The notes beneath the pieces are model-generated. The model saw only the letters and a program-made list of their open reading frames with translations, was not told where the DNA came from and did not search any database. A DNA stretch of 64,000 bases. Origin: Candidatus Woesebacteria bacterium. GTDB lineage: Bacteria; Patescibacteriota; Microgenomatia; UBA8517. The stretch covers positions 337,833-401,832 of the forward strand of contig CP055308.1 in the NCBI GenBank assembly GCA_013374855.1, read 5' to 3'. The position numbers were made by a program, and so were the translations under genes. Below are positions 892 to 44,744 of this stretch, one piece after another; within the stretch, counting starts at the first letter, position 1, and each line of letters opens with the position of its first letter.

Positions 892-3321
892 ATGAAAAAG
901 GCTTTTTTTAAGTACAGATTGTTAATTTTATTTTTTTCTGCTTTATTTTTAAGATTAGTTCTTTCTTTTTTTGGAACTTATGAGGGAGATTTTTATACTT
1001 TTATTGGCTGGAGTTTTCGTTTGGTATCAAGACCGTTGCCTGATTTTTACAAAGAATGGTCTGATTATTTGCCTGGATATCTTTACATACTTTATATTCT
1101 TGGTCGGATAAGACAAACTTTTGCTTTTATTCCAAATGAGATTCTTTATAAGTTTCCTGCTATTTTTTCTGATTTACTTGCTGGTTTGTTGGTTTATAAG
1201 ATAGTTGCGGGTTTAAAGAATAAAACGATTGCTTTTTGGGTTTCTATTGCCTATCTTTTTAATCCTGCTGTTTTTGCTAACTCTACTCTTTGGGGGCAGG
1301 TAGACTCACTAACTGTTCTTTTTCCTTTGCTTTCACTTTATTTTTTTAACATTTCTTTGCCATTTTCTTCATTTTTTCTTGCTTTTGGTGCTTTAGTTAA
1401 AGTACAAGCAGCCTTAGCTTTTATTCCTATTATAATTTTGTTTTGGAGAAAAGGATTGGGTTTTTACAAGCTTGTTAATTATGGCACTATTTCTGTTCTT
1501 ACGATAACTATTCTATTCTTGCCGTTTTTACCTTTTGGCAAGGATCTGGTGGATTTGCCGTCCTTTATCTTAGAAAGGATTGGTGCAACACTTGGGCAGT
1601 ATCCCTATCTTTCGGTGAACGCTTTTAATTTTTGGGGCTTATCTGGTTTTTGGGAGCAGTATTCTGATTATTTTCCAAACATTTTTCCAATTTTCATTTT
1701 ATTATTTGTTTCTTTTCTTCCTTATTTTAGAGCAAGAAACAAGGAAGGTCTGGAATATGTTGTTTTATCTTTGGTTTTTGCTGTATCTTTTCTTTTTTTT
1801 CCAAGAATGCATGAGCGTCATATGCTTCCTCTTTTTGCTCCCCTTGCTATATCTTGTGCTTTTTACCCCTTACTGTGGATAGTTTATTCCTTTTATTCCT
1901 TTTTTTATTTACTTAACCTTCGTTACGCTTTTGTTTGGCTGACAGAAGAAAGAAAAGAGATATTTACCAAACTTGAGATTAATTTGATTATTGTTCTTCT
2001 TCTTGTCCTTTTTGTTTTTTGGCTTTGGGTTGTTTGGCAGGACAAGAGAGATAACTTTTTTAAGAATATTGCTAAGTATTTCGGAAGATTTAGGAAAAAT
2101 TTTTCTGAAGACTATAAATTTCCCAAGTTTAATATAAATTCTAAAAGGGCTAAGTTTTTTTTGATTTTGATCTTAGTTTTTGCCTTTTTCTCACGGGTTT
2201 ATCAGTTGGGAAGACCTCAGCGAGAGTATTTTGATGAGGTCTATCATGCTTTTACAGCTCGGCTTATGCTTAAAGGCGATCCTAAAGCATGGGAGTGGTG
2301 GAATCCACATCCGGAGGGTTTTGCCTATGAGTGGAGCCACCCCCCTTTAGCAAAGCTGGGGATGCAACTAGGTATGCTTGTTTTTGGAGAAAACGCCTTT
2401 GGCTGGAGGCTTCCAGCTGCTTTGCTTGGCACGTTGTCGGTTCTGTTGGTTTATCTTTTGGCAAAAGAAATTTTTAAAGATTATCTTGTTGGTTTATTTT
2501 CAGCTTTGGTGTTCTCTCTTGATGGGCTTTTTTTGGTGGCGAGCAGGATTGGGATGAATGATATTTATGTTCTGTTTTTTTCTTTGCTTTCTATATATCT
2601 TTTTATTAAAGATAAATATTTCTTTTCTGCTTTGGCTTTGGGTCTTGCGTTTTCTTCTAAGTGGAGTGCTTTATGGGTTTTACCTATTCTTGTTTCTTCA
2701 TTCTTTGTCTTCAAAAAGAGGGTGGCTCTTCCTTATCTTTGGTTTTTGGTTCTACCACCTCTTGTCTATGTTTCAAGTTATACTCAAATGTTTTTGACTG
2801 GACATTCTTTTGATATTTTTTGGGGAGTGCAAAAACAAATGTGGTGGTATCATACAGGACTAGAGGCAACTCATCCTTACACCTCACCTTGGTGGAGCTG
2901 GCCGTTTTTGTTACGACCTGTTTGGCTTTACACGAATTCTTTTCCTGACGGAAAAGTGGCAAATATTTACTTTTTAGGCAATCCTGTTGTTTTTTGGTTT
3001 GGTGTTTTAGCTGTGTTTTATTCTCTTTATCTTTCATGGAAAAATAGATTTAAAAAACTTGCTTGGGTTATTTTTTCTTATTTTGTTTTCTTTGTTCCAT
3101 GGGCAGTTGCTCCTCGCATTATGTTTTTGTATCATTATCTTCCTAGCGTTCCTTTTATGAGTATGGTTTTGGGTTTTGTTTTAAGAAGAGATTTTGATAA
3201 GGCTTTGATATTTTTTACAATTGCCGCTTTTGTCTTTGCTTATTTTTACCCCCATCTTACAGGTATTCCCATAACAAAAGCTCTCGATATTTCTTACTAC
3301 TGGTTTGATAGCTGGCGTTAG
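892..3321 (+). CDS. Two-domain polytopic membrane glycosyltransferase. The C-terminal half is a protein O-mannosyltransferase-like (GT39/PMT) domain; the N-terminal half is a second GT-C-like membrane domain.
   Basis: The 809-aa product has many TM helices. Its C-terminal half carries the PMT hallmarks YFDEVYHAFTA and HPPLAKLGMQLGMLVFGENAFGWRLP, matching the FDEVH / HPPL-K loop-1 motifs of GT39 enzymes. Confidence 0.7.
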   Translation: MKKAFFKYRLLILFFSALFLRLVLSFFGTYEGDFYTFIGWSFRLVSRPLPDFYKEWSDYLPGYLYILYILGRIRQTFAFIPNEILYKFPAIFSDLLAGLLVYKIVAGLKNKTIAFWVSIAYLFNPAVFANSTLWGQVDSLTVLFPLLSLYFFNISLPFSSFFLAFGALVKVQAALAFIPIIILFWRKGLGFYKLVNYGTISVLTITILFLPFLPFGKDLVDLPSFILERIGATLGQYPYLSVNAFNFWGLSGFWEQYSDYFPNIFPIFILLFVSFLPYFRARNKEGLEYVVLSLVFAVSFLFFPRMHERHMLPLFAPLAISCAFYPLLWIVYSFYSFFYLLNLRYAFVWLTEERKEIFTKLEINLIIVLLLVLFVFWLWVVWQDKRDNFFKNIAKYFGRFRKNFSEDYKFPKFNINSKRAKFFLILILVFAFFSRVYQLGRPQREYFDEVYHAFTARLMLKGDPKAWEWWNPHPEGFAYEWSHPPLAKLGMQLGMLVFGENAFGWRLPAALLGTLSVLLVYLLAKEIFKDYLVGLFSALVFSLDGLFLVASRIGMNDIYVLFFSLLSIYLFIKDKYFFSALALGLAFSSKWSALWVLPILVSSFFVFKKRVALPYLWFLVLPPLVYVSSYTQMFLTGHSFDIFWGVQKQMWWYHTGLEATHPYTSPWWSWPFLLRPVWLYTNSFPDGKVANIYFLGNPVVFWFGVLAVFYSLYLSWKNRFKKLAWVIFSYFVFFVPWAVAPRIMFLYHYLPSVPFMSMVLGFVLRRDFDKALIFFTIAAFVFAYFYPHLTGIPITKALDISYYWFDSWR

Positions 3322-3324
3322 TGC

Positions 3325-5190
3325 TTACAGAATTAGGGCAAGAGATATTATTATTAATAGAATACTTATCGTCATTCCCATCATTGTTGGTGTGGAGATA
3401 CCAGCATCTGGTAGAGGTTCATCTTCAGGGGTTGGAGTAGGTATAAAAGTTGGTCTTGGTGTAGAGGTTGCTGTGGATCTTGGTCTGGGTGTAGGTGTTT
3501 CTTCCTCAGGTGTAGGTGTTGGTGAAGGTCTGGGTGTAGGTGTTTCTTCCTCAGGTGTAGGTGTTGGTGAAGGTGTTGCCTGTTCCAAATCGAAGTACAG
3601 CGGTGTACATGCATCCTCCGATGTCTCACATGGGAAAAACTTTATTTCCGTTCCTGTCCAAAACACTTCGGAATTGTTTACTAATATTCCATGATCCCAT
3701 TGGTAGAAACCGCAGATGTTATTTATTATGGAAAATGTTGCTGTTTTGGTTTCTCCCGGTCCTAATGTAATTGTTTCCTGACTAGTGAAATATGGAGGAT
3801 TGTTTCCGTAAGAAACCAGAGTTTGCGAGTCGGTACAAGTTTTTATGTTTTTTTCTTTGTAGTAGTTACAGCTTAAAGCACCAGCGCCTTTTTCGGTTGC
3901 CAATCTTTCCTGCCCTCCTGATGGATCATGTGGTGGTACGGCTGGGTTGTCAAAGCAGTGATTTGCATTCCAAAAGATTTTTCCGTTGTGGACTATTGCT
4001 CTCCTTCTATATTCCTTTCCACCCCGCCATATGCTTGTATAATACCAATTTCCTACTATGTATCCATCTACCTGCCCTTGGATATCCCCTTCGCCCGGGA
4101 GAGAGGATAATTCTGCAGGTCCTTTCCATGTGGTATCGCTATCCCATTTTGGGGCTCCATTTTCTATTGGTATCTGTCTTGAATAACCATTGTTATTACG
4201 CCAAAAAACTTGGCCAATGTGAGGCTGGTTTTGGTTAAATGTGACGTATTGATGTAAACTCTGGAATCTACCGTTGCCGGGATATTTACTTATGTCTATC
4301 TCTTCCCATCTGAACTTATTTCCTTCCCAAGGCACGTCTGGTGTGTTTATAGGCATTACTCTTCTATAAGCTTTTGTTATATTGTTTGTTTCTCTCCATA
4401 TTTCTTCATAGATTGTGGAGTTAAATTCGAATATTGCTTCGGCTATTACGTCTCCTGTGCCAGGGTAGTTGCTTGTATTAATCTCTTTCCATTCACTCCA
4501 CTTTATATCAACTTGTTCATCCCCTCTCGAGGTACTATCAACAATAATACCACTCCTTTTGTAGTTTTTATTTCCTATCCACATTGATTCCCAAATTGTT
4601 CTTGTCTTTTCAACCCTAAAGCTTGATCCTGCACTTGGCACCCCATTGGCAGGCAGTTCTATGTTTTGCGGGCCACTCCATTCTGATTGTACTCCCTCGT
4701 AAAAAATCTGAGTAAACTTTCGATAAGCCTCTTCCAAGTTTCCACCACCTTGTGTTCGGATAAATTCATTTATATCCTCCGGATAGTAGAGGTCTGTACA
4801 TTTTCCTACAGGTAATCCAATGGTGTACATCTTATAGGGGAAGGCTAGTAGTCTCAGTGTTAAGTTTTGATTCGTTTTGTTTGTAATAGTGTATTTTTGT
4901 GTTAGCACTCCACCTGTTACTGGTCTTGCATCTGTTTGCCCGCCAGGCTTAAAGTAAGTATGAGACTCATAATTTCCCGGTCCTGTGTCAACAACAGTAA
5001 CCTTTAGTTTTTGGCTTTCAAGTATTGTGCCTGATGGTGCTGCTTCACTTTTTTCTGGTGTTGTAGGGGCAACAGGCTTTTGCCTTAGTTTGTACAATCT
5101 GATAGATATAAAAATTCCCAACCCAGAAAGGATTAACAACAGAAAACTTAATATTATTAGTTTAATTTTCTTTTTTTTCGTGTTTTCCAT
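3325..5190 (-). CDS. Large cell-surface protein with an N-terminal signal-anchor TM, a Pro/Thr-rich tandem-repeat linker, and a C-terminal sorting signal LPDAGISTPT followed by a TM.
   Basis: The 621-aa product begins MENTKKKKIKLIILSFLLLILSGLGIF. Its C-terminus reads ...TPSPTPTPEEETPTPRPSPTPTPEEETPTPRP...EPLPDAGISTPTMMGMTISILLIIISLALIL. It is the last gene of the minus-strand operon. Confidence 0.7.
   Translation of the reverse strand: MENTKKKKIKLIILSFLLLILSGLGIFISIRLYKLRQKPVAPTTPEKSEAAPSGTILESQKLKVTVVDTGPGNYESHTYFKPGGQTDARPVTGGVLTQKYTITNKTNQNLTLRLLAFPYKMYTIGLPVGKCTDLYYPEDINEFIRTQGGGNLEEAYRKFTQIFYEGVQSEWSGPQNIELPANGVPSAGSSFRVEKTRTIWESMWIGNKNYKRSGIIVDSTSRGDEQVDIKWSEWKEINTSNYPGTGDVIAEAIFEFNSTIYEEIWRETNNITKAYRRVMPINTPDVPWEGNKFRWEEIDISKYPGNGRFQSLHQYVTFNQNQPHIGQVFWRNNNGYSRQIPIENGAPKWDSDTTWKGPAELSSLPGEGDIQGQVDGYIVGNWYYTSIWRGGKEYRRRAIVHNGKIFWNANHCFDNPAVPPHDPSGGQERLATEKGAGALSCNYYKEKNIKTCTDSQTLVSYGNNPPYFTSQETITLGPGETKTATFSIINNICGFYQWDHGILVNNSEVFWTGTEIKFFPCETSEDACTPLYFDLEQATPSPTPTPEEETPTPRPSPTPTPEEETPTPRPRSTATSTPRPTFIPTPTPEDEPLPDAGISTPTMMGMTISILLIIISLALIL
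3482..3571. repeat. Perfect 45-bp tandem duplication (two copies) inside the PT-rich linker coding region; each copy encodes a 15-aa PT-rich unit.
   Basis: The unit ggtctgggtgtaggtgtttcttcctcaggtgtaggtgttggtgaa is seen twice back to back, with a degenerate third copy upstream. Confidence 0.8.
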
Positions 5191-6441: not shown

Positions 6442-7311
6442 TCAAAACACTATTGAAAAAAACGAGATTAGTATTAGCAGAATTCCTGTTGTTATACCTA
6501 AAAATGTGGGTGTGCTAACACCGGATTCTGGCTGTGGAAGGGGAGATGGTGTGGGTGTTTTTATGTTTATTTGTGTTTGGCTTGTTGGAAAGGGAGTGGT
6601 TGTTTTCTCTGGTTCTGTTGTATTTACCGGAGTTTTGTTACTTGGGGTGGGTGTTGTGGGCGTTTCTGTAGGTTGACTTGATTCTACTTTGTAATTTCCT
6701 GTGCTTGATGGTGTAAGGAGAATATCTTCTCCTGTTGTTTTGTTGGTTGCTTTTGTAGTAGTGGGCTCAAATACTAGAGTGATTGATCCTGGGTTATAGC
6801 CTTTGAAAGTAATAGTGGCAAGAATTTCTTCACCCGATGTCTTATATCCGGTGGTTGAGCTGTTTAGCCCACCAATACGGATTTCTGCTAAACCATCTGA
6901 AGCATCGTAGGTCTTTATTGGAAAGTTCCAACCCCCGTTAACTAAAAGGTTAGAATTAATTTGGATATTTTCTGCTTTTATTGGAGGTTCAGGGGAACTG
7001 TATTGATATGTTAGATTTATTGTAAGGGCTGATATGTAATTACCCGCAGTATCAATGAGTATATTTACATCGAAATTTTCATCCTTTTTGATAGTTTTAG
7101 TCTCTGGTGAAAGAAATACTCTCACTGTGCCTGTTGGCGTGGCGGCTTTTTCTCTTATTTCTTGATTCTTTTTGACCAAAATTATACCTATCGCTGTTCC
7201 GACCACAAGCGAAAGTATACCGAGAGTTATTAGTGCTATTTTTCCTCTTTTTCTGTTTTTTCTTTGGGTGATTATCTTATCTTCTTCCATCGTAAATTTA
7301 TTTGCCAACAA
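6442..7311 (-). CDS. Cohesin-like domain surface protein (scaffoldin-like) with an N-terminal TM-KNQEIREKAA module and a C-terminal PT-rich linker plus PQPESGVSTPT-TM sorting signal.
   Basis: The 289-aa product has a central ~130-aa segment FDVNILIDTAGNYISALTINLTYQY...GLAEIRIGG...SGEEILATITFKGYNPGSITLVF with a cohesin-type beta-sandwich pattern. The cohesin domain is approximately at 6744..7140. Confidence 0.55.
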   Translation of the reverse strand: MLANKFTMEEDKIITQRKNRKRGKIALITLGILSLVVGTAIGIILVKKNQEIREKAATPTGTVRVFLSPETKTIKKDENFDVNILIDTAGNYISALTINLTYQYSSPEPPIKAENIQINSNLLVNGGWNFPIKTYDASDGLAEIRIGGLNSSTTGYKTSGEEILATITFKGYNPGSITLVFEPTTTKATNKTTGEDILLTPSSTGNYKVESSQPTETPTTPTPSNKTPVNTTEPEKTTTPFPTSQTQINIKTPTPSPLPQPESGVSTPTFLGITTGILLILISFFSIVF

Positions 7312-7866: not shown

Positions 7867-9411
7867 TTAGTCTCCTTTAATGATAAATGATGACCAGTTT
7901 AAAGCAACAAGTGCTAAATCATCAATTGTGATATAACCATCTTTAGTTATGTCAGCCCCAATCATATTTTTATCTGATGCATTTACTTTTATTTTGAAGT
8001 CTGTATAGTATTTCAGTACGAGAGATATATCCTCTATGCTTATAATGTTGTCGTTGTTAGCATCTCCTGCTTTTAGTTCATCTTTGATGTCTGTGCTTTT
8101 GTCTATTATTGTATTGTTATTGCTTATTTGTACGTTGGCGAATTTTTTTCTAAGATGAGATACTCCTTTTATGTAAAGATTATAAGTACCGGCGGGGATA
8201 TTGTTTCCTTGTTCATCAGTTGAGAAATTAATTGTCCAGATTCCGTTTTCATCAACAGAAACGGGTGCTTGCCCGATCTTGTGAGTTTTCTCTTCGTTTG
8301 TAAGGGTGATGTAAGTATCTAATTGAGAGGGAATGTTTGATTTAATTTTTGTTGTAATCCCTTGTTGTCTGAAGAGAATTTTTATGTTTTCTGTGGGACT
8401 GCTTTTTGGGGAAACTGCTATTATCAGAGCATAATCATTAAAGTCGCATTCTGCTTTTTTAGCATAATCCCCCCAGCATTGTTGGGAGATAATTATTCCT
8501 CCCGAGCTTTGTGTCGTCTTGATTAAAGATGATACATCCTTTTCTTTGCACTTATTGTTTTCTGGTTTTATCCATCCTTCGAAGGGGTAAGGCCCACTAT
8601 CACTGCCAACGTCTTCTCCATAAATACAAAGTTTATCCCCGTTTTTGACTTGGACCCCCGTTACTATTACTTGATCCGTTTTTGTGTCTTTTGTGTCTAT
8701 CAATTTGTCATATTCGGTTAAACTGCAAGTTTGGCTGTTTTTCTTTAGGGCAATTTTGGGTGGGGTAGATTCTAAAAAGCTGGCAAAGGAAAGCAGGACT
8801 TCTCCATCGTTTTTTATGTCTAAAACTGTTGGATTTGGATTTTTATCGCAAGAGTTTTCACCTCCACCGCCTGATGATGTAGTACAAGTACATTTTGGTT
8901 TTCCATCGCTACCGCTTTGGTTTAAGGCAATGCATTTCTTACCACTTCCACAAGAATCTCCAGGATTTTTCCCTTGACATTTTGCAGCCGAAGCACTGCT
9001 GCATCCTGCTTGTGTTCCTCCACCACCTCCACCCCCGCCGCTACCTTGAGCCTGGATACATTTTCCATCTTGATATAAAGGTTTATCAGTGGGACAACAT
9101 GTTGTCAGACGTCCGCTTGTGGACATTATGCAATATATTGCTTCTGGTAAAGATTTGGGTAAATTGCAATCAGTGGCTGGGCAATAAGGATAGTCGCAGG
9201 CCGAGTGTTTGATGCATCTTTCTTGATTGCACATGTAACCTTTGGGGCAGCCAGCTCCAATTCCACAAAGACCTCTGTTGCCAGAATCACAGATCATCTC
9301 TGCCTTTTCTCTTATGTCTTGAGATTGTTGTGTTAGGACTATTCCAGATGTTGCTCCAATGAGCAGTAGGAGGGTGAAGAGGATTTTAATTATCTCTTTT
9401 TTTGTAATCAT
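7867..9411 (-). CDS. Cys-rich surface protein with the TM-QQSQDIREKA N-module, a poly-Gly run, a prealbumin-like beta domain and a C-terminal dockerin domain.
   Basis: The 514-aa product ends with two Ca-binding dockerin repeats, GDANNDNIISIEDISLVLKYY and ADITKDGYITIDDLALVALNW. It contains GGGGGGGG and many Cys. Its start overlaps the stop of the upstream gene by 1 nt. Confidence 0.7.
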   Translation of the reverse strand: MITKKEIIKILFTLLLLIGATSGIVLTQQSQDIREKAEMICDSGNRGLCGIGAGCPKGYMCNQERCIKHSACDYPYCPATDCNLPKSLPEAIYCIMSTSGRLTTCCPTDKPLYQDGKCIQAQGSGGGGGGGGTQAGCSSASAAKCQGKNPGDSCGSGKKCIALNQSGSDGKPKCTCTTSSGGGGENSCDKNPNPTVLDIKNDGEVLLSFASFLESTPPKIALKKNSQTCSLTEYDKLIDTKDTKTDQVIVTGVQVKNGDKLCIYGEDVGSDSGPYPFEGWIKPENNKCKEKDVSSLIKTTQSSGGIIISQQCWGDYAKKAECDFNDYALIIAVSPKSSPTENIKILFRQQGITTKIKSNIPSQLDTYITLTNEEKTHKIGQAPVSVDENGIWTINFSTDEQGNNIPAGTYNLYIKGVSHLRKKFANVQISNNNTIIDKSTDIKDELKAGDANNDNIISIEDISLVLKYYTDFKIKVNASDKNMIGADITKDGYITIDDLALVALNWSSFIIKGD

Positions 9412-10733
9412 TAGTTTGTAAAAAGCAGAACGCCACTTGCTGTAAACAATAGTAAACCGGCAAAAAGCAAAATTAAAGTAGGTGTTTTAACACCGGATTC
9501 GGGTTGGGCAGGGGTAGCTGATGGGCTTGCTATTTTTGGGGTAGGAGTGAAAGCAAGTGGTGTTGGTGTTAGACTTGCCGAAGGTGTGCTTTCAAAAGCA
9601 GGCTCATCTGTTTCTGCAGCTTTGATTGTAAAGTTTCTCACAATGTTTCTTAAGATTCCGTTTTCGTCACGATAGGTGATTGTTATTTTGTGCTCCCCTG
9701 GAGACAGATTTTTGGGAGGGGACCATCTCCAAGTACCGTCGGATGATGCTCTTATGGTATCGGAAATCGGGCTTTCGGATTCTACCTTAATTGTTATTTG
9801 TTCTTGGGGAGGAGCTTTTCCAAAAAATTCTGGTTTGGTTGTGTAAATTGTTTCTCCGTCTTCTATGCTTTCAAGAGATACCGTTTTGTTTGTAGTTGTG
9901 TTTTTTTCATTTTCTTCAATGTCAAACCTTGGTTTCTTGGTTTTTTCTTCTGGTGTTTCAATTTCTGAGCTTGGCAGAGAAGCTTCTTGGTTTGTTGTTG
10001 TAGATGTTATGTTTGTAAAGTCGTGGTTTTCTCCCAATATCATTGGTGGGAGAGTTAAACCTGTTGCTAAATAAGCTTCTGCGGTTGATATTCCTTGGGG
10101 TCCTGCTTGAGCAATGATGGAGACTTTGAGGTTGGAAACTGATTGGAGATAATTACTTAAATTGCTGTCTAGAAGAGAGTTAATATTTATTATCCAATTG
10201 CCATTTCCTGATGTTGTAGTTGATAGAACTTGCGCTCCCTCTATGTTTAGGATTACAAGAATGTTTGTTGCTTCAGTTCCTGAAGCAGTGATGACTTTAC
10301 CTCCTATTCTTATATTGTCTGATGACGCATTGTTGAGTGGTGGTGCTGTCTTAACTTCCCATGCTTTTTGATTGTTGTCATACGTCTTGTCGTCTGAGAT
10401 TATTTTGAAAAAGTAATTTTTGTTTGGGGAAAGTCCTGAGATAGTTGATGAGTGTACAAAGCTTTTGCCTTCTATTTCATCTAGTGCTGTTTGGTTTAGA
10501 TTGTTTTCACTTTCTCCCCATATAACAAAACCTGTTGTTCTTTGAGAAGTTGTCCATATTACAGAAAAAGATGAACTTGTTATGTTTGTAATTTTTACAT
10601 CTTGAGGAGGATAATTTCCTTCAGCGCCAAGCCTAAATATTTGCCTTTGTTTGACAAGAATTACAGCTATGGGTAAACTTGTTATAAGCAGGAATAACCC
10701 GATTATTGTTGGTATTCTTATTTTGTCCATCAT
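9411..10733 (-). CDS. Fibronectin type III domain surface protein with the variant N-module TM-VKQRQIFRLGAEG and the C-terminal sorting signal AQPESGVKTPT followed by a TM.
   Basis: The 440-aa product has an FN3 signature PPQDVKITNITSSSFSVIWTT...GFVIWGE...ISGLSPNKNYFFKI, located at about 10358..10610. The C-terminus reads ...PAQPESGVKTPTLILLFAGLLLFTASGVLLFTN. Confidence 0.7.
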   Translation of the reverse strand: MMDKIRIPTIIGLFLLITSLPIAVILVKQRQIFRLGAEGNYPPQDVKITNITSSSFSVIWTTSQRTTGFVIWGESENNLNQTALDEIEGKSFVHSSTISGLSPNKNYFFKIISDDKTYDNNQKAWEVKTAPPLNNASSDNIRIGGKVITASGTEATNILVILNIEGAQVLSTTTSGNGNWIININSLLDSNLSNYLQSVSNLKVSIIAQAGPQGISTAEAYLATGLTLPPMILGENHDFTNITSTTTNQEASLPSSEIETPEEKTKKPRFDIEENEKNTTTNKTVSLESIEDGETIYTTKPEFFGKAPPQEQITIKVESESPISDTIRASSDGTWRWSPPKNLSPGEHKITITYRDENGILRNIVRNFTIKAAETDEPAFESTPSASLTPTPLAFTPTPKIASPSATPAQPESGVKTPTLILLFAGLLLFTASGVLLFTN

Positions 10734-11092
10734 TACTCCTCATCGATTTCATATTCACCTGTAATTTCATTCCTTTCAACAGGCTCTATTGTAGGCGAGG
10801 GGGTTTCCGTTTTTGGTGTAGGAGTGTTTTGTATGCTAACTTCTTTTGGGGTGGGGTTTGGTGTTTTAATTATTGTTTCCTTGAAACCGCCTTCTTCAAA
10901 GTGTTTTTTATTCTTTATTTTTTCTATTACTTCAAGTCCTACGTTTGGATCAACAGGTTGTATAATTTCTGGAGGAACAACAACAGGCAGAGGTTTTTTG
11001 AAAGTTTGGTAGATGCTATAAAATACCCAGCTTACCACAGTTATTGAGGTAAGGATTAGTGTAAAAACTGAATTTGGTAATTTTTTCGCCAT
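10733..11092 (-). CDS. Small Pro-rich membrane-anchored protein, in the PilP-like position downstream of pilO.
   Basis: The 119-aa product has an N-terminal TM and a PT-rich tail. Its start overlaps the pilO stop by 1 nt (TAATG), consistent with translational coupling. Confidence 0.4.
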   Translation of the reverse strand: MAKKLPNSVFTLILTSITVVSWVFYSIYQTFKKPLPVVVPPEIIQPVDPNVGLEVIEKIKNKKHFEEGGFKETIIKTPNPTPKEVSIQNTPTPKTETPSPTIEPVERNEITGEYEIDEE

Positions 11093-11820
11093 TATTGTTC
11101 TTTATCTATCATTTCCATATCTTCTTTTTTAGTGTTTTCTTGATTCTTTTTAATTTCTTTTTCTTTGCTTTCCATAAAGTATAATGCCTTTGCGTTTATG
11201 TTAAGGTTTAATGTCTCGCTATTAGAATCATCCTCGCTGTCTTTTTCTGGTTGCAGATTAAACTGATCGAATATTAGTATTCTTAAGAGGTTTTCGTAAG
11301 TTTGAATGGTTTTTATTAGATTTTCATATCGTCCTTTTATTGAAATACTTGTTTCAAAGTAGCTTGAATTTTCTGGTATTTTTGTTCTATCTACACCTAC
11401 ATTGGAATTGCCTGCCAAGATGATGTTTTTTGTGGATATTGATCTTATTTCAACTTCAGATTCATTTGAGGCAGCTTCGATTTGTCTTATTACTATCTCA
11501 GGGTCTGGTTTTGATGGCAAAGATGTGTCAAGCAAGGAAAGGCTACTTTCTTCTTGCGATAGTATTTGTTGTGCTTTTTGAAGATTTTTTATTTTTATAT
11601 CCATCTTTGACAAAGTCTCTTTTTTGGCTTTTATTTCTTTATTTATTTCTATTATGGTGTTGGCTGTTGGTTTCAAGGCAAAAACAGAAAAAATTACTAT
11701 TGCCAAGGATGTGAGTATTAATTCAACAAAGTTTCTAACATTTTCCTTTTCTTTGTAATAATTGTAGTTTTTCCAGAATAGGTTTTTGTATTGATTGTAC
11801 GTATTTCTCCAGCTTCTCAT
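11092..11820 (-). CDS. pilO: Type IV pilus assembly protein PilO-like.
   Basis: The 242-aa product has a short cytoplasmic N-terminus, one TM (LILTSLAIVIFSVFAL), a coiled-coil and a C-terminal domain (ISIKGRYENLIKTIQTYENLLRILIF) typical of PilO. It lies immediately downstream of pilN. Confidence 0.6.
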   Translation of the reverse strand: MRSWRNTYNQYKNLFWKNYNYYKEKENVRNFVELILTSLAIVIFSVFALKPTANTIIEINKEIKAKKETLSKMDIKIKNLQKAQQILSQEESSLSLLDTSLPSKPDPEIVIRQIEAASNESEVEIRSISTKNIILAGNSNVGVDRTKIPENSSYFETSISIKGRYENLIKTIQTYENLLRILIFDQFNLQPEKDSEDDSNSETLNLNINAKALYFMESKEKEIKKNQENTKKEDMEMIDKEQ

Positions 11821-11828
11821 ACTTTATT

Positions 11829-12419
11829 TTAATTTTCAGTTTTTTTCACTGGTATAGACAAACTGAATTTTAGTAGTTGACTATTTTCCTCGTCTGGTCC
11901 TATCTGTGACAGAGCGGTATTTTTGAATTCTTCTTGTGATTGAAGGTTAACAAGAATTTGAGCTATAGAATTTTCATCCTTTGCTATGCCAGAAATAGTA
12001 ATTTTTTCTTCGTTTAAGGCAATTGATGACAAAATTATTGTTGGAGGGATTTGACTTGTTAGTTTGCTTATGACCTCGGAAGGAATAATTTTGTTTGATG
12101 AAACCTCGCTTATGATAGAGGTTTTCTTTTGCACTTCTCTAATTCTGTTTTCGGTCTCTTTCATTGCTTTTATTTGTGCTTCTTTTTGTCTTATTTCTTC
12201 TGATAGGTCGGTGTTTTTAGCATCAAGCCAGAATCTAGACATGAAAGCGGAGATGACGAAAAGTTCAACTATTATTACCAGAGTTCTAAAAGTTGATAAG
12301 AACCAAACCAAGACTCTGCCTGCAGTTGTTTCTGAGAACTTGTCTTGAGGCAATAAATTTATTTGTTTTTCTTTCTTGCTTTTAAGGGCAGACATCAAAG
12401 AAATAATATCACAAAGCAA
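11829..12419 (-). CDS. pilN: Type IV pilus assembly protein PilN-like.
   Basis: The 196-aa product has the conserved N-terminal INLLP motif (the PilM-binding motif) followed by a TM, a coiled-coil and a periplasmic domain. Confidence 0.7.
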   Translation of the reverse strand: MLCDIISLMSALKSKKEKQINLLPQDKFSETTAGRVLVWFLSTFRTLVIIVELFVISAFMSRFWLDAKNTDLSEEIRQKEAQIKAMKETENRIREVQKKTSIISEVSSNKIIPSEVISKLTSQIPPTIILSSIALNEEKITISGIAKDENSIAQILVNLQSQEEFKNTALSQIGPDEENSQLLKFSLSIPVKKTEN

Positions 12420-12434
12420 TTAGTACTGGAAGTA

Positions 12435-12695
12435 TTATTTTTTGTTCTTTTTATTTTTTACAAGGGGTGTGATTTTTGAGATTTTGCTTTTAATTCTTGA
12501 AGCTTTGTTTTTGTGAATTGCTTTCTTTTTTGCTGCCTTGTCTATTTCTGATATTAGTTTTTTTAAGATTTCTGGATTTTTATCTTTTTTGAACTTTCTC
12601 ATTAAGATATCGATTTTTTTGAAGATCAATAAGTTTTTTGCCCGTTTTCTTAACGAACTTCGGAGGGCTCTCTTGGCTGTCTTTGTTACTGGCAT
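12435..12695 (-). CDS. rpsT: 30S ribosomal protein S20.
   Basis: The product reads TKTAKRALRSSLRKRAKN...AIHKNKASRIKSKISK, matching the bS20 signature. It sits 15 nt upstream of pilN on the same strand. Confidence 0.75.
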   Translation of the reverse strand: MPVTKTAKRALRSSLRKRAKNLLIFKKIDILMRKFKKDKNPEILKKLISEIDKAAKKKAIHKNKASRIKSKISKITPLVKNKKNKK

Positions 12696-12758
12696 ATATT
12701 GTATTTTTTTAAATTACTTTGTGAAGTATAATTCAGTTAAGTTTCATTTTCAACTACT

Positions 12759-14480: not shown

Positions 14481-14662
14481 GCAATTTAGAGGTAGTTCTA
14501 TCTATGTGAATGAAATTTGGAGATCATTCTAAAGTTGAAAATTAAGATTTTTTAGAGTTTTAACTTATGACTTATAATATAATTTAATTTTTACTTTTGA
14601 GTTGATATTCCACTTTCTAGAATTTTTAAGTTGTGGTTTTATTCTTTGAATTCTATGGGGTC

Positions 14663-14699
14663 TTGACAAGTTTTAGCACTCATATTATTATTCTGCTAA
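14663..14699 (+). promoter_or_regulatory. Sigma-70-like promoter (TTGACA...TATTAT) overlapping a CIRCE-like HrcA operator (TTAGCACTC-N9-TTCTGCTAA), upstream of hrcA.
   Basis: TTGACA is at about 14663-14668. The left CIRCE half TTAGCACTC is a perfect match; the right half matches GAGTGCTAA at 6 of 9 positions. An AAGGAGG RBS precedes the ATG at 14714. Confidence 0.6.
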
Positions 14700-14713
14700 A
14701 GGAGGATTTGTAT

Positions 14714-20437: not shown

Positions 20438-21297
20438 ATGAAAAATCTGATTATTATGATATCTTAGGAGTTGGCAGAAATGCCTCGGCAGAGGAGATAA
20501 AAAAAGCTTATCGGAGGCTTGCTTTGGAATGGCATCCAGACAGACATAAAGATGATAAAGAGGTTGCTGAAAAGAAATTCAAGGAAATAAACGAGGCTTA
20601 TCAAGTCTTATCAGATCCTGAAAAGAGGGCAGCTTACGATCAGTTTGGTCATTCTGCTTTCTCACCGGGTGGGGCTGGGTTTTCTGGTTCCCCTTTTTCT
20701 CAATCCGGCCGCTGGGGTCCCTTTACTTATACTTATACTACCTCTGGCGGCTCTCCCTTTGAAGGTTTTGATTTTGGTGATCCATTTGATATTTTTGAAC
20801 AGTTTTTTGGGGGATCGCCTTTTGCAAGAACAAGAAGAGTTCCTCGCTATTCTATTACCCTTGATTTTATGGAAGCAGTTGAGGGTTGCGAGAAGGAAAT
20901 TGTAGTTGAAGGGAAAAAAAGGAGGGTAAAAATTCCAGCTGGTATTGATGAAGGATCACGCATTAATTTTGGCGACTTTATGCTTTCTGTGAATATCCGT
21001 CCACACCCAATTTTCGAGCGTGACGGAGCGGATGTTTATGTAAGAGTGAATATTCCCTACTCCTTGGCTGTTTTAGGTGGCGAAGTTGAGGTTCCAACCT
21101 TGGATGGGAGTGTTAAAGTGAGGGTAAGGGAAGGTACTAAGGCAGGCACACTGATGCGTCTTCGTGGCAGGGGCGTTAAGAGGTTGCGCGGTGCTGGTAG
21201 GGGCGATTTTTATGTAAAGTTTGATATTCTGGTGCCAGATAAGATAAAAGGTAATCAAAAGGCAGCGGTTCAGGCACTTAGAAAAGTAGGGCTTTAA
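20434..21297 (+). CDS. dnaJ: DnaJ-like co-chaperone (J domain, G/F region and C-terminal substrate domains) with no CxxCxGxG zinc finger; CbpA/type II-like.
   Basis: The product reads [32 protein letters not shown] and has a G/F-rich stretch. No Cys-rich Zn-finger repeats are present. Its start overlaps the clpB stop (ATGA). Confidence 0.8.
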
Positions 21298-22571
21298 ATT
21301 GCAAGAGCAATAGAGATTACCAAGAGCAGAATACTTATTCCGGTTCCTATTATGGTTGGGGTTGAACTACCAGCTTCAGGTAGTGATTCTTCCTTTACAA
21401 TTTGTTGTGGTGTAGAAGTAGGAGTTAATGTTTGTGTGATTGCTGTCCTTTCTGTTGGTTGAGGAGTTGGTGCATTAGTGGGTTGATTTGTATAGGTTGG
21501 TCCTAAGGTAGGTGTACTTGTAGGAGTAACTGTGGGAGATGCCGTTGGACTAGGACTTGGACTAGGAGTTGGGGTGAAGAGTAACTCACAAGTTAGTCCG
21601 GTCTGACAAAATCCATCTGGGCCTACATCAAGGCAAGCTCGTCTTGGCAGGCCTTCGCATGGATCTTTTGGAGGTCGTGGGCGTTTTGGAGGTTTTGTAG
21701 GTTGAGGCATTGGTGGAATTGTTGGTTCCGGTACCTCTGTGGGTGTAACCGTAGCGGTGGGTGTAGGCGTTGGGGGAAGTGTGGAAATGGGAGTCTCTGT
21801 GGGTGGCACTGGTGGTTCACAGTTTAGAACTCCAATATGTAGTCTTGTTTGATAAGAACCGCAGGCTTTTCCGCTTGTTGACTGGCTTGTGACAGTGATG
21901 GATTTTGATTCGTTGTGTCCCAATTCAAATGTCTCTCCCTTTGGCGGGTTGTTTGGATCGGGCTCGTCACATACTGGGTAGCCTTCAATAAATTCGCCAC
22001 AAGGGCTGTCGGGGCAGTAGTTTGATTCTGTAATTGTTCTTATTTCTGCCTTTTCATTCTCAAATCCCGGTTTGGCCTCGATAGTGATTGTCCATGTTGA
22101 GGAGTAGGAGGTTATGTTGTTTGTTTGTATTCCGTTGGGAGTACATTGCAATATTTGAGGACATTGAGTCTTTTCCTCCTCGCTGATGTAGACTTTGAAT
22201 TTTGCACAGTCTAGGACTTTGATAACATCCTCTGGTGGAATGAACGCTTTTTCTCTTATTTCTTGTCGTCTTTGGCTTAAGAATACTCCTGCTCCGATTC
22301 CCCCTGCCACTATCAGTAAGATTAAAATTGTGGCGATTATTTTCTTTCTGTACCTTGCCTTACTAGGTGGTTTTATGATGTTAGGCGCGAATGAGGAGGC
22401 AGAGGAGCCTGCGTTGGCCTTAGAAAAACCACTGCTACTTTTGCTACCTGTGTTGTGGGCTGGTATTACTTGTTGTTTTTCTTCCGGAGGCGGAGGAGGT
22501 GGTGGTATATCTGCCGTATCGGCAAAGAATGGGGTGTTATTATTGCTGTTCTCTTGGAGACTTGTTGCCAT
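21294..22571 (-). CDS. Surface protein with a long Pro-rich cytoplasmic tail, the [15 protein letters not shown]-module, Cys-containing beta domains, a PT-rich linker and the sorting signal [10 protein letters not shown] followed by a TM.
   Basis: The 425-aa product has an N-terminal region [35 protein letters not shown] paralogous to the 5198..6394 protein. Its C-terminus reads ...[31 protein letters not shown]. Confidence 0.7.
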
Positions 22572-41720: not shown

Positions 41721-43991
41721 ATGGATCTAAAAAGATTTGTGTCTCCCAAAAAGGAAGTTGAAGAGAAGTACTGGTCTGTCGTTATAGAGCCGGATTGGGT
41801 TCAAAGTGGAATCTGGATTGCTCAAGACGGCAAAGTGGAAGTGCTTTCTTTTAGCAAACCTTTGCCATGGAGCGGCGAGGAAAATCTGGTAGATGTAGTT
41901 GATTCTTCCCTTTCGGTTTCTGTTGGTAATTTGGCAGAAGATGATTTGGAAATATCGAAAACTGTTTTTGGGCTTTCGTCGTCTTGGGTAACTCCTGATG
42001 GAGGAATCAAACAAGAATATCAAGACCTAATTAAGAATGTTTGTCAGGAGCTGTCTCTAAAGCCTGTGGGCTTTGTGGTTTTAAGTGAAGCTTTAGCTTT
42101 TTATTTTAAGTCAGAAGAGAAAGTTCCACTTAATGCTATTATTGTTGGTTTGGGAGAGAAAAATGTGTCTGTTTCTCTTTTTATTGAAGGGGTGAACAAG
42201 GGTGAGGTAATAGTCTCTAGAAGTCTCTCGGTAACTGACGATATTGCTGAAGGCCTTTCTCGGTTCTTGCAAGTTTCCTCTTTTCCTCCAAGAATTCTCC
42301 TTTTTAATGGTCGTGAGGGAGAGTTAGAAGATGTGTTGCAAGAGATAACATCAGTTGATTGGTCTGGGTTTGAGGGAATTAGTTTTTTGCATCTTCCCAA
42401 GGTAGAGGTAATTGATCTTGAAGAGAAAATAAAAGCGGTTTCGCTTGCTGGGGGAGTTGAGCTTTTGGGGGCAACTTCTGTGTTAATAAAAGAAGCAGGA
42501 AAAGAAGTTTCTTTTGATGTTGAGAAGGAAATAGGTTTGGCGGAAAGCAAGGAAACTGATGATTCTGGTTATCAGGATGAGAAGTCTTTGCAGGGGGATA
42601 ATTTTTCTTCTGTTGAAGGTGATGTTGGGTTTGTGGTTGATAAAGACATAAAAGAGATTGGAGAGAAGGTGATAGGGAAACAAATTTCTCGGGATGGTTT
42701 TAAGGAAAATTTTAAAGAAATTGATGGTGGTTTTGAAGAAGGTTTTCAGCCAGTTAGAACTGAATTGCCAGGAGGAGATATGTTTGAAAAAAATCTTGGT
42801 AAGAGAGGATTTATATTTCGGAATATTTTTAAAAAACAACTTTCATCTATTTCACTTTTTTCTTATAAAACACCAATCTTGGTTGGTATTGTTACTTTCA
42901 TACTGGTTTTTCTGGGTTTTTTTGTGGCGTGGTGGTTTTTACCGAAAGCTTCGGTTATAGTCTATCTTTCGCCTAAAAAGATAGAAAGTAAACAAGAGGT
43001 TGTTTTTGATGCAACAGCCAAGGATGTTGATTTGAGGGCAAAAACTATTCCTTCCAATTTAATCAAAAGAGAACAATCGGGAGAAAAGACAATACCAACC
43101 TCAGGTACAAAGCTAACGGGCGAGAAAGCAAAGGGTAAGATTGTGATATATCGAACCGGTTCTCAGTTGTCTTTAGATAAGGGAACGAAAGTCCAGAATT
43201 CATCAGGGCTTACCTTTGTTTTGGATGAAGATGTTACAGTTGCAAGCGGAAGCGCATCTTCACCAGCAAAAACAGAAGCTCAAGTAACGGCTGCAGATAT
43301 TGGGTCGGAATATAATCTAGCTTCCGGTGAATCCTTTACCATTGGCAATTATCCCTCGAGTGAGATTGAAGCCAAAAATGAAGAGTCTTTTAGTGGTGGT
43401 TCAAGTAGAGAAATTAGCTCTGTATCCTCTGCCGATTATGATAATGTGCTTTCTGAATTAAAGAAGGAGCTGAGAGACAAGGCAATTTCTGCTATTAAGA
43501 GTTCGCTTTCTTCAGATGATTATTTGATAGAAGAAACTTTAATTGAGAATGAAAAGCAGAAAGTTTATGATCATAAGATAGGTGACGAAGCAACTAGCCT
43601 AAAACTTAGCTTAACAATGGAGTTTTCTGCTTTTTCTTTCAAGAAGTATGATATGTTTGAATTTTCAAAGGAAATCTTGAAGGATCAAATTACTTCTGGA
43701 TATGTGTTAAGGGAAGGACAGTTGTCTTTAGGTTTTGATGTCAAAGAGATTAAAAATGATAAGGCTTTTATCTTGGCTTCATTTTCTGCAAATTTGTTAC
43801 CCGCTATTGACGCTGATCAAATAAAGAAAAAAATTGTGGGAAGAAAAATTAAGTTTGTTGAAGATTATTTAATAAAAGAGTCGGGTTACGAAAAGGTTAA
43901 GATTGATATTGTTCCTGGTATTTTTAACAGATTTGGGTTTCTACCCCATGTCTCAAATAATATAGAAGTTGGATTTGAATCCTCGCGTTAG
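41721..43991 (+). CDS. Fusion protein: an N-terminal cytoplasmic FtsA/PilM-like actin-fold domain, a central TM, and a ~350-aa extracytoplasmic domain of unknown function.
   Basis: The N-terminus (YWSVVIEPDWVQSGIWIAQDGKVEVLSFSKPLPW...KPVGFVVLSEALAFYF...AIIVGLGEKNVSVSLFIEGV) follows the SHS2/actin-like pattern of PilM/FtsA. The TM is TPILVGIVTFILVFLGFFVAWWFL, and a Ser/Lys-rich ectodomain follows. Confidence 0.55.
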   Translation: MDLKRFVSPKKEVEEKYWSVVIEPDWVQSGIWIAQDGKVEVLSFSKPLPWSGEENLVDVVDSSLSVSVGNLAEDDLEISKTVFGLSSSWVTPDGGIKQEYQDLIKNVCQELSLKPVGFVVLSEALAFYFKSEEKVPLNAIIVGLGEKNVSVSLFIEGVNKGEVIVSRSLSVTDDIAEGLSRFLQVSSFPPRILLFNGREGELEDVLQEITSVDWSGFEGISFLHLPKVEVIDLEEKIKAVSLAGGVELLGATSVLIKEAGKEVSFDVEKEIGLAESKETDDSGYQDEKSLQGDNFSSVEGDVGFVVDKDIKEIGEKVIGKQISRDGFKENFKEIDGGFEEGFQPVRTELPGGDMFEKNLGKRGFIFRNIFKKQLSSISLFSYKTPILVGIVTFILVFLGFFVAWWFLPKASVIVYLSPKKIESKQEVVFDATAKDVDLRAKTIPSNLIKREQSGEKTIPTSGTKLTGEKAKGKIVIYRTGSQLSLDKGTKVQNSSGLTFVLDEDVTVASGSASSPAKTEAQVTAADIGSEYNLASGESFTIGNYPSSEIEAKNEESFSGGSSREISSVSSADYDNVLSELKKELRDKAISAIKSSLSSDDYLIEETLIENEKQKVYDHKIGDEATSLKLSLTMEFSAFSFKKYDMFEFSKEILKDQITSGYVLREGQLSLGFDVKEIKNDKAFILASFSANLLPAIDADQIKKKIVGRKIKFVEDYLIKESGYEKVKIDIVPGIFNRFGFLPHVSNNIEVGFESSR

Positions 43992-44033: not shown

Positions 44034-44744
44034 GTGATTGATATGAACTTACCCAAGAAAACTTTATTAAGACTTGTTTTTTCTTTTTTGCTTGGTCTAG
44101 TTGGAGTTTTGATATTGGGTTTCACTCTATATCCTATAATTTCTTATGAATTAAATAATAGGAGCAGTCTATCTGGTTTATTATCTCCTGTGGTAGAGGA
44201 GGATGTGGATATCTTTTATGAAAAGGATTACACAAAGGCAAGTAACTGGTTTGTAGGTGGAGCGAAGATAGAGGATTTTTCTTTGCCTAAAGTAGCTTTT
44301 TATAATCTATCTATCCCGAAGCTTAGGATTGAGGATGCAGTTGTTGCAATAGGAGGAGAGGATCTTAATGAGCACCTAATCCAATATCCGGGTACTGCTT
44401 TGCCTGGGCAAGTTGGGAATGCGGTTATATTTGGTCACTCAATTTTACCCCGTTTTTATGATCCTAAAAATTACATTTCTATCTTCTCGCTCTTACCTAC
44501 TCTTGAAAAGGGAGATTCTATTTTTGTTGTTTATGATGGTATCGAATATTTGTATAAGGTTGAGGATATGTTTGAGGTCACCCCAAACGATATTCAAGTC
44601 TTGGAGCAAAATCGTTCTGACTCTTATCTTACGCTTGTAACCTGCACTCCACCTGGAGATCCTCGAAAGCCAAAAAGGCTGATTGTAAGAGCAAAGATAG
44701 TTTCCAATCAAGCGAATAAGCAGACAGAGAATCTTAACATATGA
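44034..44744 (+). CDS. Sortase (transpeptidase) with an N-terminal membrane anchor.
   Basis: The product has the catalytic His (NAVIFGHSI), the TLxTC Cys motif (YLTLVTCTPPG) and a downstream conserved Arg (PKRLIVRA), after an N-terminal TM. Confidence 0.85.
   Translation: MIDMNLPKKTLLRLVFSFLLGLVGVLILGFTLYPIISYELNNRSSLSGLLSPVVEEDVDIFYEKDYTKASNWFVGGAKIEDFSLPKVAFYNLSIPKLRIEDAVVAIGGEDLNEHLIQYPGTALPGQVGNAVIFGHSILPRFYDPKNYISIFSLLPTLEKGDSIFVVYDGIEYLYKVEDMFEVTPNDIQVLEQNRSDSYLTLVTCTPPGDPRKPKRLIVRAKIVSNQANKQTENLNI

Follow-up and report, generated by a model that had tools for sequence, protein, structure and literature searches.

Probable sortase-type C-terminal sorting signals on four proteins of a Candidatus Woesebacteria genome, and a sortase, their candidate processing enzyme, encoded in the same stretch of DNA

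By which signals are surface proteins held at the cell wall in the candidate phyla radiation (CPR, Patescibacteria), a very large and mostly uncultured radiation whose envelope and host attachment are poorly understood? The question is raised by a stretch of 64,000 nucleotides (hereafter referred to as the window) from a Candidatus Woesebacteria genome of the Microgenomates group (NCBI GenBank assembly GCA_013374855.1, contig CP055308.1, positions 337,833 to 401,832), in which four genes encode proteins, hereafter the candidate substrates 1 to 4, that end in a short shared motif followed by a hydrophobic segment, and in which a membrane-anchored sortase is also encoded. An initial annotation of the window described the motif as P-[DE]-[AS]-G-x-[SK]-TPT and proposed either a distinct sortase specificity or an exosortase-like mechanism. 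The analysis reported here indicates that the tails are probably sortase-type cell-wall sorting signals specific to the Microgenomates, composed of a pentapeptide [L/Q/V/I]-P-x-[S/A/T]-G, a polar spacer ending in Pro-Thr and a transmembrane (TM) segment of about 19 residues, usually without a cationic tail. By analogy with known systems, the sortase of the window is most likely the enzyme that would read them.

The four open reading frames (ORFs) are all on the minus strand and end as written in the initial annotation. The translations give LPDAGISTPT-MMGMTISILLIIISLALIL as the C-terminus of substrate 1 (3325..5190), QPESGVSTPT-FLGITTGILLILISFFSIVF for substrate 2 (6442..7311) and QPESGVKTPT-LILLFAGLLLFTASGVLLFTN* for substrate 3 (9411..10733), with a tail of the same type in substrate 4 (21294..22571); EPLPDAGISTPT, LPQPESGVSTPT and ESLPATGDLTPT are candidate sortase substrate peptides bearing the tail motifs. 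The signals themselves occupy the positions 3328..3414, 6445..6534, 9414..9506 and 21297..21383, respectively, on the minus strand. A polar spacer of five residues (such as ISTPT) separates the motif from a hydrophobic segment of about 19 residues. In substrates 1 and 4 this segment has 19 residues and the tail extends 24 residues past the Gly, and the tail of substrate 3 represents a longer subtype with 26 residues past the Gly. A six-frame scan of the window for P[DE][AS]G yielded six matches, two of which are antisense readings of the same DNA as the four in-frame matches, and all four in-frame matches lie 28-30 residues ahead of a stop codon. The back-translated DNA pattern occurs in four copies in the window, including those of substrates 1 (3386-3411), 2 and 3, against an expectation of 0.00 from 100 dinucleotide-preserving shuffles. 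Among the stop-to-stop segments of at least 80 amino acids (aa), no real gene other than these four has a hydrophobic C-terminus, the remaining hydrophobic-ended segments being short antisense ORFs, and no other sortase-type signals were seen in the window.

An N-terminal hydrophobic segment with basic residues ahead of it, as in an export signal, is present in all four. The 60 residues ahead of the motif consist of 38-63% Pro, Thr and Ser, compared with 17% for the proteins of the window, in agreement with the Pro/Thr-rich linker noted earlier. With the Gly as P1', all four tails carry the Pro at P3 and the Gly near the C-terminus that characterise sorting signals. The canonical pairing of Leu at P4 with Thr at P1 is absent, P4 being Leu, Gln, Gln and Leu and P1 being Ala, Ser, Ser and Ala, and there is no Lys or Arg past the motif in any of the four, so that the cationic C-terminal cluster of LPXTG signals is missing. 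Searches of the full proteins and of the isolated tails against the curated sorting-signal Hidden Markov Models (HMMs; NCBIfam and the Pfam anchor) at E<=10 gave no match except a weak one of the fourth tail to the C-terminus of EF0750_LPXTG (E=0.07). These results confirm the four tails as a genuine, recurrent C-terminal module of the sorting type, LPXTG-like yet divergent.

Relatives of the tails were sought at the levels of both protein and DNA. A search with an alignment of the four tails against an index of 5.8 billion proteins gave 126 word candidates, none of them at E<=10, which is a limit of the method and does not count against the motif. Since true tails reach only 13-16 bits with a tail-only profile after composition correction (E of about 1e3 at 1.84 billion sequences), full-length substrate 1 was chosen as the exhaustive query. 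Its comparison by phmmer with 1.84 billion representatives identified about 44 proteins with unrelated cargo that bear the tail and match only in the leader and/or in the linker plus tail. Database and locus-derived tails together form a set of 58, aligned on the Gly and biased to query-like tails, in which Leu occupies P4 in 47, Pro occupies P3 in 55, P2 is variable and P1 is Ala in 40, Ser in 14 and Thr in four. Pro is found at +5 in 54 and Thr at +6 in 49 of these tails, the length past the Gly is exactly 24 residues in 45, with a conserved ...LAL end, and Lys or Arg occurs within the last eight residues in only two.

At least 120 matches to the DNA pattern were listed from 185,579 species genomes, mostly by chance and in high-GC genomes; among the 120 listed, 119 are chance matches, neither C-terminal nor hydrophobic, and one has the full architecture. 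This one (locus L017) comes from a Candidatus Woesebacteria metagenome-assembled genome, where a PMT gene is followed by two convergent tail genes ending in PESGISTPA and LPDAGISTPT, each with a TM segment. A set of 21 tails free of similarity bias was then available from the window, L017 and seven further loci in different genomes for which PMT orthologues served as anchors (L201-L207). Pro is present at P3 in 20 of the 21, P1 is Ser in 12, Ala in six and Thr in three, and P4 is Leu in nine, Gln in four, Val in four, Ile in two and Lys in two. Building an HMM from the tail pattern had been suggested as a check in the initial annotation; such a model, trained on 37 database tails only, was run on all the ORFs of held-out DNA. 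At 17 bits or more it gave 14 held-out matches, all within a few residues of the C-terminus: three in the window (substrate 1, 32.7 bits, and substrate 4, 38.2 bits, both to the C-terminus; substrate 2, 28.1 bits), two in L017 and nine in the PMT loci. The 119 unrelated control loci, with 7,115 ORFs, yielded no match, their best score being an internal one of 14.7 bits, and the 3,367 ORFs around sortase genes yielded none either. The tails of the relatives also qualify the earlier description. The motif as first written holds in this genome, but the Asp/Glu position and the first Thr of the supposedly invariant TPT vary elsewhere, and it is therefore a local form of [L/Q/V/I]-P-x-[S/A/T]-G-x-x-x-P-T followed by a TM segment. 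Likewise, the basic tail is absent from the four tails of the window but present in some orthologues (WKIADR, WKTAEN, WKASEN).

The syntenic orthologues of substrate 3, a protein with fn3 and Big_13 domains, are of particular value for judging the nature of the signal. The pentapeptide at the same position reads QPESG in the window and QPISG, KYDSG, VPVSG, IPVTG, QPVSG, LPATG and KPESG in the other members of the series, and the orthologue with LPATG (in locus L206) also has a charged tail, WKIADR. Canonical LPATG and IPVTG thus stand in the place of QPESG, and the two kinds of signal are interchangeable. This exchange constitutes the strongest evidence obtained here that the tails are of the sortase type. 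In addition, surface proteins of staphylococci are known to use LPXAG and LPXSG as natural, minor variants (PMC3436756, PMC7137321).

A covariation within the pentapeptide was also observed, with Leu at P4 accompanying Ala at P1 (LPxAG) and Gln, Val, Ile or Lys at P4 accompanying Ser or Thr at P1 (xPxSG). Ala is found at P1 in six of the nine tails with Leu at P4 and in none of the other 12 (Fisher p=0.0015, a value confounded by orthology), and the pattern could correspond to two signal subtypes or two recognition modes. In L206, a Microgenomates genome, two near-identical uncalled ORFs (12433-13000 and 14293-14960) end in LPASGTDWPT and a TM segment, which suggests a local duplication of tail-bearing cassette genes beside PMT.

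The candidate reader of these signals is encoded at 44034..44744 on the plus strand, where the initial annotation had placed a membrane-anchored sortase with a TLVTC active site. The assignment is borne out by matches to Pfam PF04203 (90.9 bits, cut-off 26.6) and TIGR01076 (58.7 bits, cut-off 39.35), by an N-terminal TM segment (residues 9-27) ahead of an extracytoplasmic domain and by the residues His135 (in FGHS), Cys204 (TLVTC, within LTLVTC) and Arg215 (in KRLIVRA), which are invariant in 28 homologues. The predicted topology, with the N-terminus inside, places the catalytic domain outside the membrane. In a comparison of its AlphaFold2 model with the PDB, the best 50 Foldseek matches listed are sortases throughout, and the nearest solved structures belong to classes A, C, D and E about equally, at 21-30% identity. 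None of the class-specific NCBIfam models passes its cut-off; the scores are 54 bits for class C and 52.6 for class E (cut-off 160 each), 42.7 for class D (165), 44.9 for SrtD (140), 26.5 for class F (166) and 19.9 for class GN (158), and no class A or class B model is among the models listed for this protein. Assignment to class C or class E was rejected, the scores being a third of the cut-offs.

The sortase family comprises more than 3,000 members at about 60% identity, and the closest relatives are annotated as Microgenomates, Woesebacteria or Patescibacteria; the sortase has been reported to be near-ubiquitous in the Microgenomates (PMC6744442). The gene lies in a rigid housekeeping block composed of AlaRS, a 756-aa bitopic protein, the sortase, RuvX, YceG/MltG, rpoB and rpoC. 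The bitopic membrane protein (41721..43991, plus strand), directly upstream of the sortase, has a TM region at about residues 377-414, a cytoplasmic N-terminal half and a Baseplate_J-like ectodomain (Pfam, 32.6 bits); it precedes the sortase in 66 of 80 related loci and may be a partner of the enzyme. Sortase and tails occur on the same contig of 802,554 bp in this genome, within the window, and share a contig again on Ga0395806_0000003, the genes being about 25-45 kb apart.

The tail genes are embedded in a locus rich in envelope functions. A minus-strand run comprises PilN, PilO, a small TM protein, substrate 3, a dockerin protein, a 187-aa protein, substrate 2, a 398-aa protein and substrate 1, whose gene abuts that of a GT39/PMT-family protein O-mannosyltransferase (892..3321, plus strand; Pfam PMT, PMT_2 and PMT_4TMC) in convergent orientation; MurJ lies on the other side of the run. 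The Pro/Thr/Ser linkers are probably glycosylated by this enzyme, judging from the gene content. The 10 kb directly upstream of the window (L208) encode two FemAB proteins, an LCP (LytR-CpsA-Psr) protein and a TMEM260/PMT_2-like GT-C enzyme. The seven PMT loci share one synteny of FemAB, UvrD, LCP, GT-C, PMT, tail genes, the fn3/Big_13 tail protein, PilO, PilN, S20 and MurJ. The envelope block beside the substrates contains two FemAB genes, UvrD, LytR-CpsA-Psr, the TMEM260/PMT_2-like GT-C enzyme, a polytopic protein of about 390 aa and the GT39 PMT, a gene content that points to O-glycosylated Pro/Thr/Ser linkers and a putative branched peptidoglycan cross-bridge.

Substrate 1 (621 aa) begins with a K-rich hydrophobic leader, 'IRLYKLRQ..VAPTTPE', followed by a globular body with repeats and then by a Pro/Thr linker and the tail; TM segments lie at residues 7-25 and 597-615. 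Its body carries, at residues of about 230-420, a repeated 'WRG(N/G)QGYxRxVPIxxGxxxWxxAxxWSGP' unit, which corresponds to no Pfam family and is also present in more than 100 tail-less database proteins of other contexts. Substrate 2 (about 289 aa) consists of a leader with a TM segment and QEIREKA, a probable divergent beta-sandwich of the cohesin type, a Pro/Thr linker and the tail. Its orthologues (53-56% identity) match the Pfam Cohesin model over nearly its full length at sub-threshold scores of 19.7 and 14.3 bits (cut-off 24.1), and BLASTP of substrate 2 against the clear cohesin protein of the window revealed no significant similarity. Substrate 3 (440 aa) has fn3 (Pfam, 35.6 bits) and Big_13 (39.8 bits) Ig-like domains and lies directly downstream of PilN, PilO and the small TM protein. 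The PilO-like protein (11092-11820; Pfam, 36.2 bits) and PilN (11829-12419; 47.7 bits), together spanning 11092..12419 on the minus strand, head the operon with substrates 3 and 2. The fn3/Big_13 tail protein follows PilN, PilO and a TM protein of about 115 aa in eight genomes (the window and L201-L207), an arrangement suggesting that, in these outer-membrane-less bacteria, the type IV pilus alignment complex has a wall-anchored protein associated with it. Substrate 4 (425 aa) begins with a long low-complexity N-terminus and a TM segment with the QEIREKA leader; a small domain containing Cys and a long Pro/Thr linker then lead to the tail, and its gene is apart from the PMT block, between a dnaJ-like gene and a dockerin gene. 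Name look-ups for the proteins of the window and for ten tail-bearing proteins returned 'hypothetical protein' or nothing.

Two conserved leader modules, each with a motif past the hydrophobic core, recur at the N-termini of the proteins at 3325-5190, 6442-7311, 21294-22571 and 7867-9411. The first, '...AIFTAIRLYQLRQxxVAPTAPESxPxAA', is found in substrate 1 and in about 40 of the 44 tail-bearing database proteins, and the second, a TM segment followed by 'Q(E/D)IREKA', in substrates 2 and 4, in the tail-less dockerin protein (7867-9411) and in L017 (3494-4330). Neither leader type matches a model in Pfam or NCBIfam, and by analogy they may play a role akin to that of the YSIRK-type leaders of LPXTG proteins. 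One clear cohesin protein (26182-27237) and three dockerin proteins (7867-9411, 22665-26063 and 45142-47565) are encoded within 64 kb of a genome of about 0.8 Mb; together with the probable cohesin substrate 2, these genes hint at a cohesin-dockerin surface display in a CPR bacterium. The dockerin proteins at 22665-26063 and 45142-47565 are 100% identical over their C-terminal 215 or so residues (25400-26063 and 46900-47565; CBM_4_9-like plus dockerin), with divergent bodies, which suggests a recent gene conversion or module transfer. The gene at 45142-47565 separates ruvX from yceG, an insertion lacking in all 80 related sortase loci. Over the whole 64 kb and irrespective of gene orientation, GC skew remains strongly positive (0.01 to 0.32). 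AT skew shifts from about -0.27 to about 0 near 16 kb, at the point where the genes switch orientation; for UBA1400-type Microgenomates genomes, a cumulative GC skew that is likewise monotonic has been described (PMC7143001).

If the tails are sorting signals, their course of action can be proposed by analogy with LPXTG proteins and SrtA. The substrates would be exported via Sec by the N-terminal hydrophobic leaders, the C-terminal helix would retain them in the membrane and the five-residue spacer would expose the pentapeptide just outside it. The single-pass sortase at 44034-44744 would then cut ahead of the Gly, after P1 (in this genome Ala or Ser), with the resulting thioacyl intermediate carried by Cys204, and would hand the protein to an amine of lipid II or of the peptidoglycan cross-bridge, FemAB-type bridge enzymes and MurJ being encoded next to the substrates. 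Stalks that distance the cargo from the wall could be formed by the Pro/Thr/Ser linkers, which are probable targets for O-mannosylation by the neighbouring GT39/PMT and TMEM260-like GT-C enzymes. Among such cargo would be the Ig/fn3 protein associated with the PilN/PilO type IV pilus operon, small Cys-rich domains and a probable cohesin, to which the dockerin proteins encoded nearby could bind.

Several points weigh against this interpretation. The link between tail and sortase rests on analogy, co-occurrence and the orthologue series, and the co-occurrence is not discriminating because tails and sortase are both general to the Microgenomates. Across 80 metagenome loci (744 kb), no tail-bearing ORF lay less than 10 kb from the sortase, although such a lack of linkage neither supports nor weakens the connection because it is usual for housekeeping sortases. 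The cationic tail, which is definitive of canonical signals, is absent in 56 of the 58 tails, Thr at P1 is rare here and nearly invariant in characterised substrates, and the curated LPXTG models fail to recognise the tails. The 44 database tails, moreover, are not independent, since they were found by their similarity to substrate 1 and most of them share its leader, as members of a cassette family. Finally, another sorting enzyme could be encoded elsewhere because the analysis covered about 74 kb of the 802-kb genome.

Three other explanations were considered. The tails could be permanent, uncleaved membrane anchors, with the juxtamembrane PxxG...PT acting as a structural or glycosylation element read by the adjacent GT-C/PMT enzymes at the outer face of the membrane and with the sortase serving other proteins. 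A PMT-family gene is indeed found beside the tail genes in all nine genomes examined, the Pro-Thr is conserved at a fixed short distance from the membrane, the fixed length of 24 residues and the missing cationic tail set these tails apart from typical sortase signals, and the sortase is never linked to the tail genes. However, PMT adjacency is not specific to the tails because the PMT block is a general envelope locus (FemAB, LCP, MurJ), and substrate 4 bears the tail at a distance of about 18 kb from the PMT gene. The pentapeptide has the exact form of a sortase signal and is replaced by LPATG and IPVTG in orthologues, and permanent anchoring would leave a near-universal, well-conserved sortase without a visible substrate in the window; this explanation is considered unlikely. 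Slightly less likely still is processing by a different enzyme encoded elsewhere, such as an exosortase/archaeosortase-like enzyme, a rhomboid or a CPBP-type intramembrane protease. The domain-like regularity of the tails, with their fixed length and conserved ...LAL end, resembles that of PEP-CTERM and PGF-CTERM signals, the Thr-rich, probably glycosylated linkers recall those of PGF-CTERM proteins, x-P-[DE]-S-G resembles the VPDSG-CTERM variant, and the analysis covered only a minor part of the genome.

Signals processed within the membrane, however, abut the helix with no spacer (Haft 2023), whereas here five polar residues part the motif from it. The Arg-rich tails of such signals are absent, no NCBIfam sorting-signal model of the PEP-CTERM, VPDSG, PGF or GlyGly types matches the tails even at E<=10, and no candidate multi-pass protease was seen in the window or in nine substrate loci, where the multi-pass proteins are GT-C glycosyltransferases and MurJ. 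None of the features of an intramembrane-processed signal of the PEP-CTERM, VPDSG-CTERM, PGF-CTERM, GlyGly-CTERM or MYXO-CTERM kinds, namely a motif on the helix, an Arg-rich tail, an HMM match and a polytopic enzyme, was thus observed, the absence of the enzyme applying to the examined loci, and no paper tying exosortase-like or intramembrane sorting systems to the CPR was found in the literature searched. The two mechanisms named in the initial annotation therefore fare differently: a distinct specificity is favoured, as no class A-F or GN cut-off is reached and Ser and Ala dominate at P1, and the exosortase-like mechanism is unsupported on account of the spacer, the lack of model matches and the absence of a visible enzyme in the loci examined. 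That the sortase mainly builds covalent pili from these proteins, as class C enzymes do, appears very improbable. Class C is nominally the best class-specific match, two substrates share an operon with PilN and PilO, and many family members are small with conserved ends. The class C score, on the other hand, is far under its cut-off and no better than that of class E, PilN and PilO belong to type IV pili and not to sortase pili, the sortase is located in a housekeeping block rather than a pilin island, the cargo proteins are heterogeneous, and no YPKN-type pilin motif was seen on reading the four translations, for which no pattern search was made.

Cell-wall sorting by a sortase thus being preferred, a wider proposal may be put forward tentatively, as a possibility that falls somewhat short of being probable. 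The Microgenomates sortase could form a separate class with a grammar of its own, [L/Q/V/I]-P-x-[S/A]-G...P-T with a fixed-length helix and no cationic tail, perhaps with coupled LPxAG and xPxSG subtypes, and could act with GT-C/PMT O-mannosylation and LCP to build a covalent glycoprotein coat that includes a type IV pilus component and a cohesin-dockerin display. If this were true, one HMM could suffice to delimit the sortase-dependent surface proteome in thousands of CPR genomes from uncultured organisms. More generally, a defined signal would permit the wall-anchored surface proteome to be predicted from sequence and would provide candidate adhesins and pilus-associated proteins for the episymbiotic lifestyle. 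A sortase that accepts Ala or Ser at P1 and needs no cationic tail would, if confirmed, join the enzyme repertoire and may interest engineers of orthogonal sortases. No curated model (NCBIfam release 20, Pfam) and no paper in the literature searched was found to describe this tail, a CPR sortase signal or the substrates of the Microgenomates sortase; the finding represents an extension of a well-understood mechanism and no new principle.

In comparison with known systems, the present one works like LPXTG sorting by a housekeeping sortase, from which it departs in the Thr at P1, the cationic tail and the match to curated models, with an enzyme outside the curated classes. It shares with the LPXTG/SrtA-type system of the Firmicutes the succession of export leader, cargo, linker, x-P-x-x-G pentapeptide, short spacer and C-terminal TM segment, a single-pass sortase with His, Cys and Arg, and substrates that are many, unrelated and unlinked to the enzyme. 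It differs in that P1 is mostly Ser or Ala (Thr in three of the 21 unbiased tails) and P4 is often Gln, Val, Ile or Lys, in the conserved Pro-Thr at 4-5 residues past the Gly, in a length almost fixed at 24 and in the lack of a cationic tail; TIGR01167-type models and Pfam miss these tails and the sortase reaches no class A cut-off.

The class E sortases and LAXTG signals of the Actinobacteria (Streptomyces SrtE, Actinomyces oris SrtA/GspA) likewise combine a housekeeping sortase with a pentapeptide altered in one lineage. The scores for the class E and class C models are about equal, and Thermobifida SrtE is among the top structural matches. In A. oris, an LCP enzyme mediates the glycosylation of sortase substrates that precedes their anchoring, and LCP and PMT genes similarly flank the substrate block here. 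Unlike class E, the change is at P1 and P4 and not at P3, the class E cut-off is not approached, identity to the solved class E enzymes is 25-28% and there is no basic tail. Clostridioides difficile has a single housekeeping sortase, SrtB, for (S/P)PXTG signals; this enzyme does not require Leu at P4, a tolerance that QPESG, VPESG and IPESG would need here. In contrast, P1 stays Thr in C. difficile, the enzyme is of class B and its substrates have charged tails. The PGF-CTERM/archaeosortase A and PEP-CTERM/exosortase systems are comparable in having a short, regular, HMM-definable C-terminal domain on many unrelated proteins, with many per genome, and Thr/Ser-rich, probably glycosylated linkers ahead of it, but their motif abuts the helix, their tail is Arg-rich and their enzyme polytopic, whereas the tails described here have a spacer, no Arg cluster and no model match. 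Lastly, ScaE of Ruminococcus flavefaciens is a cohesin held on the wall via a sortase signal, where it docks dockerin-bearing proteins. Although the cohesin match of substrate 2 is sub-threshold and no cellulosomal enzymes are evident, the window is reminiscent of such a scaffoldin, with substrate 2 as a probable cohesin and with three dockerin proteins and one clear cohesin protein encoded alongside it.

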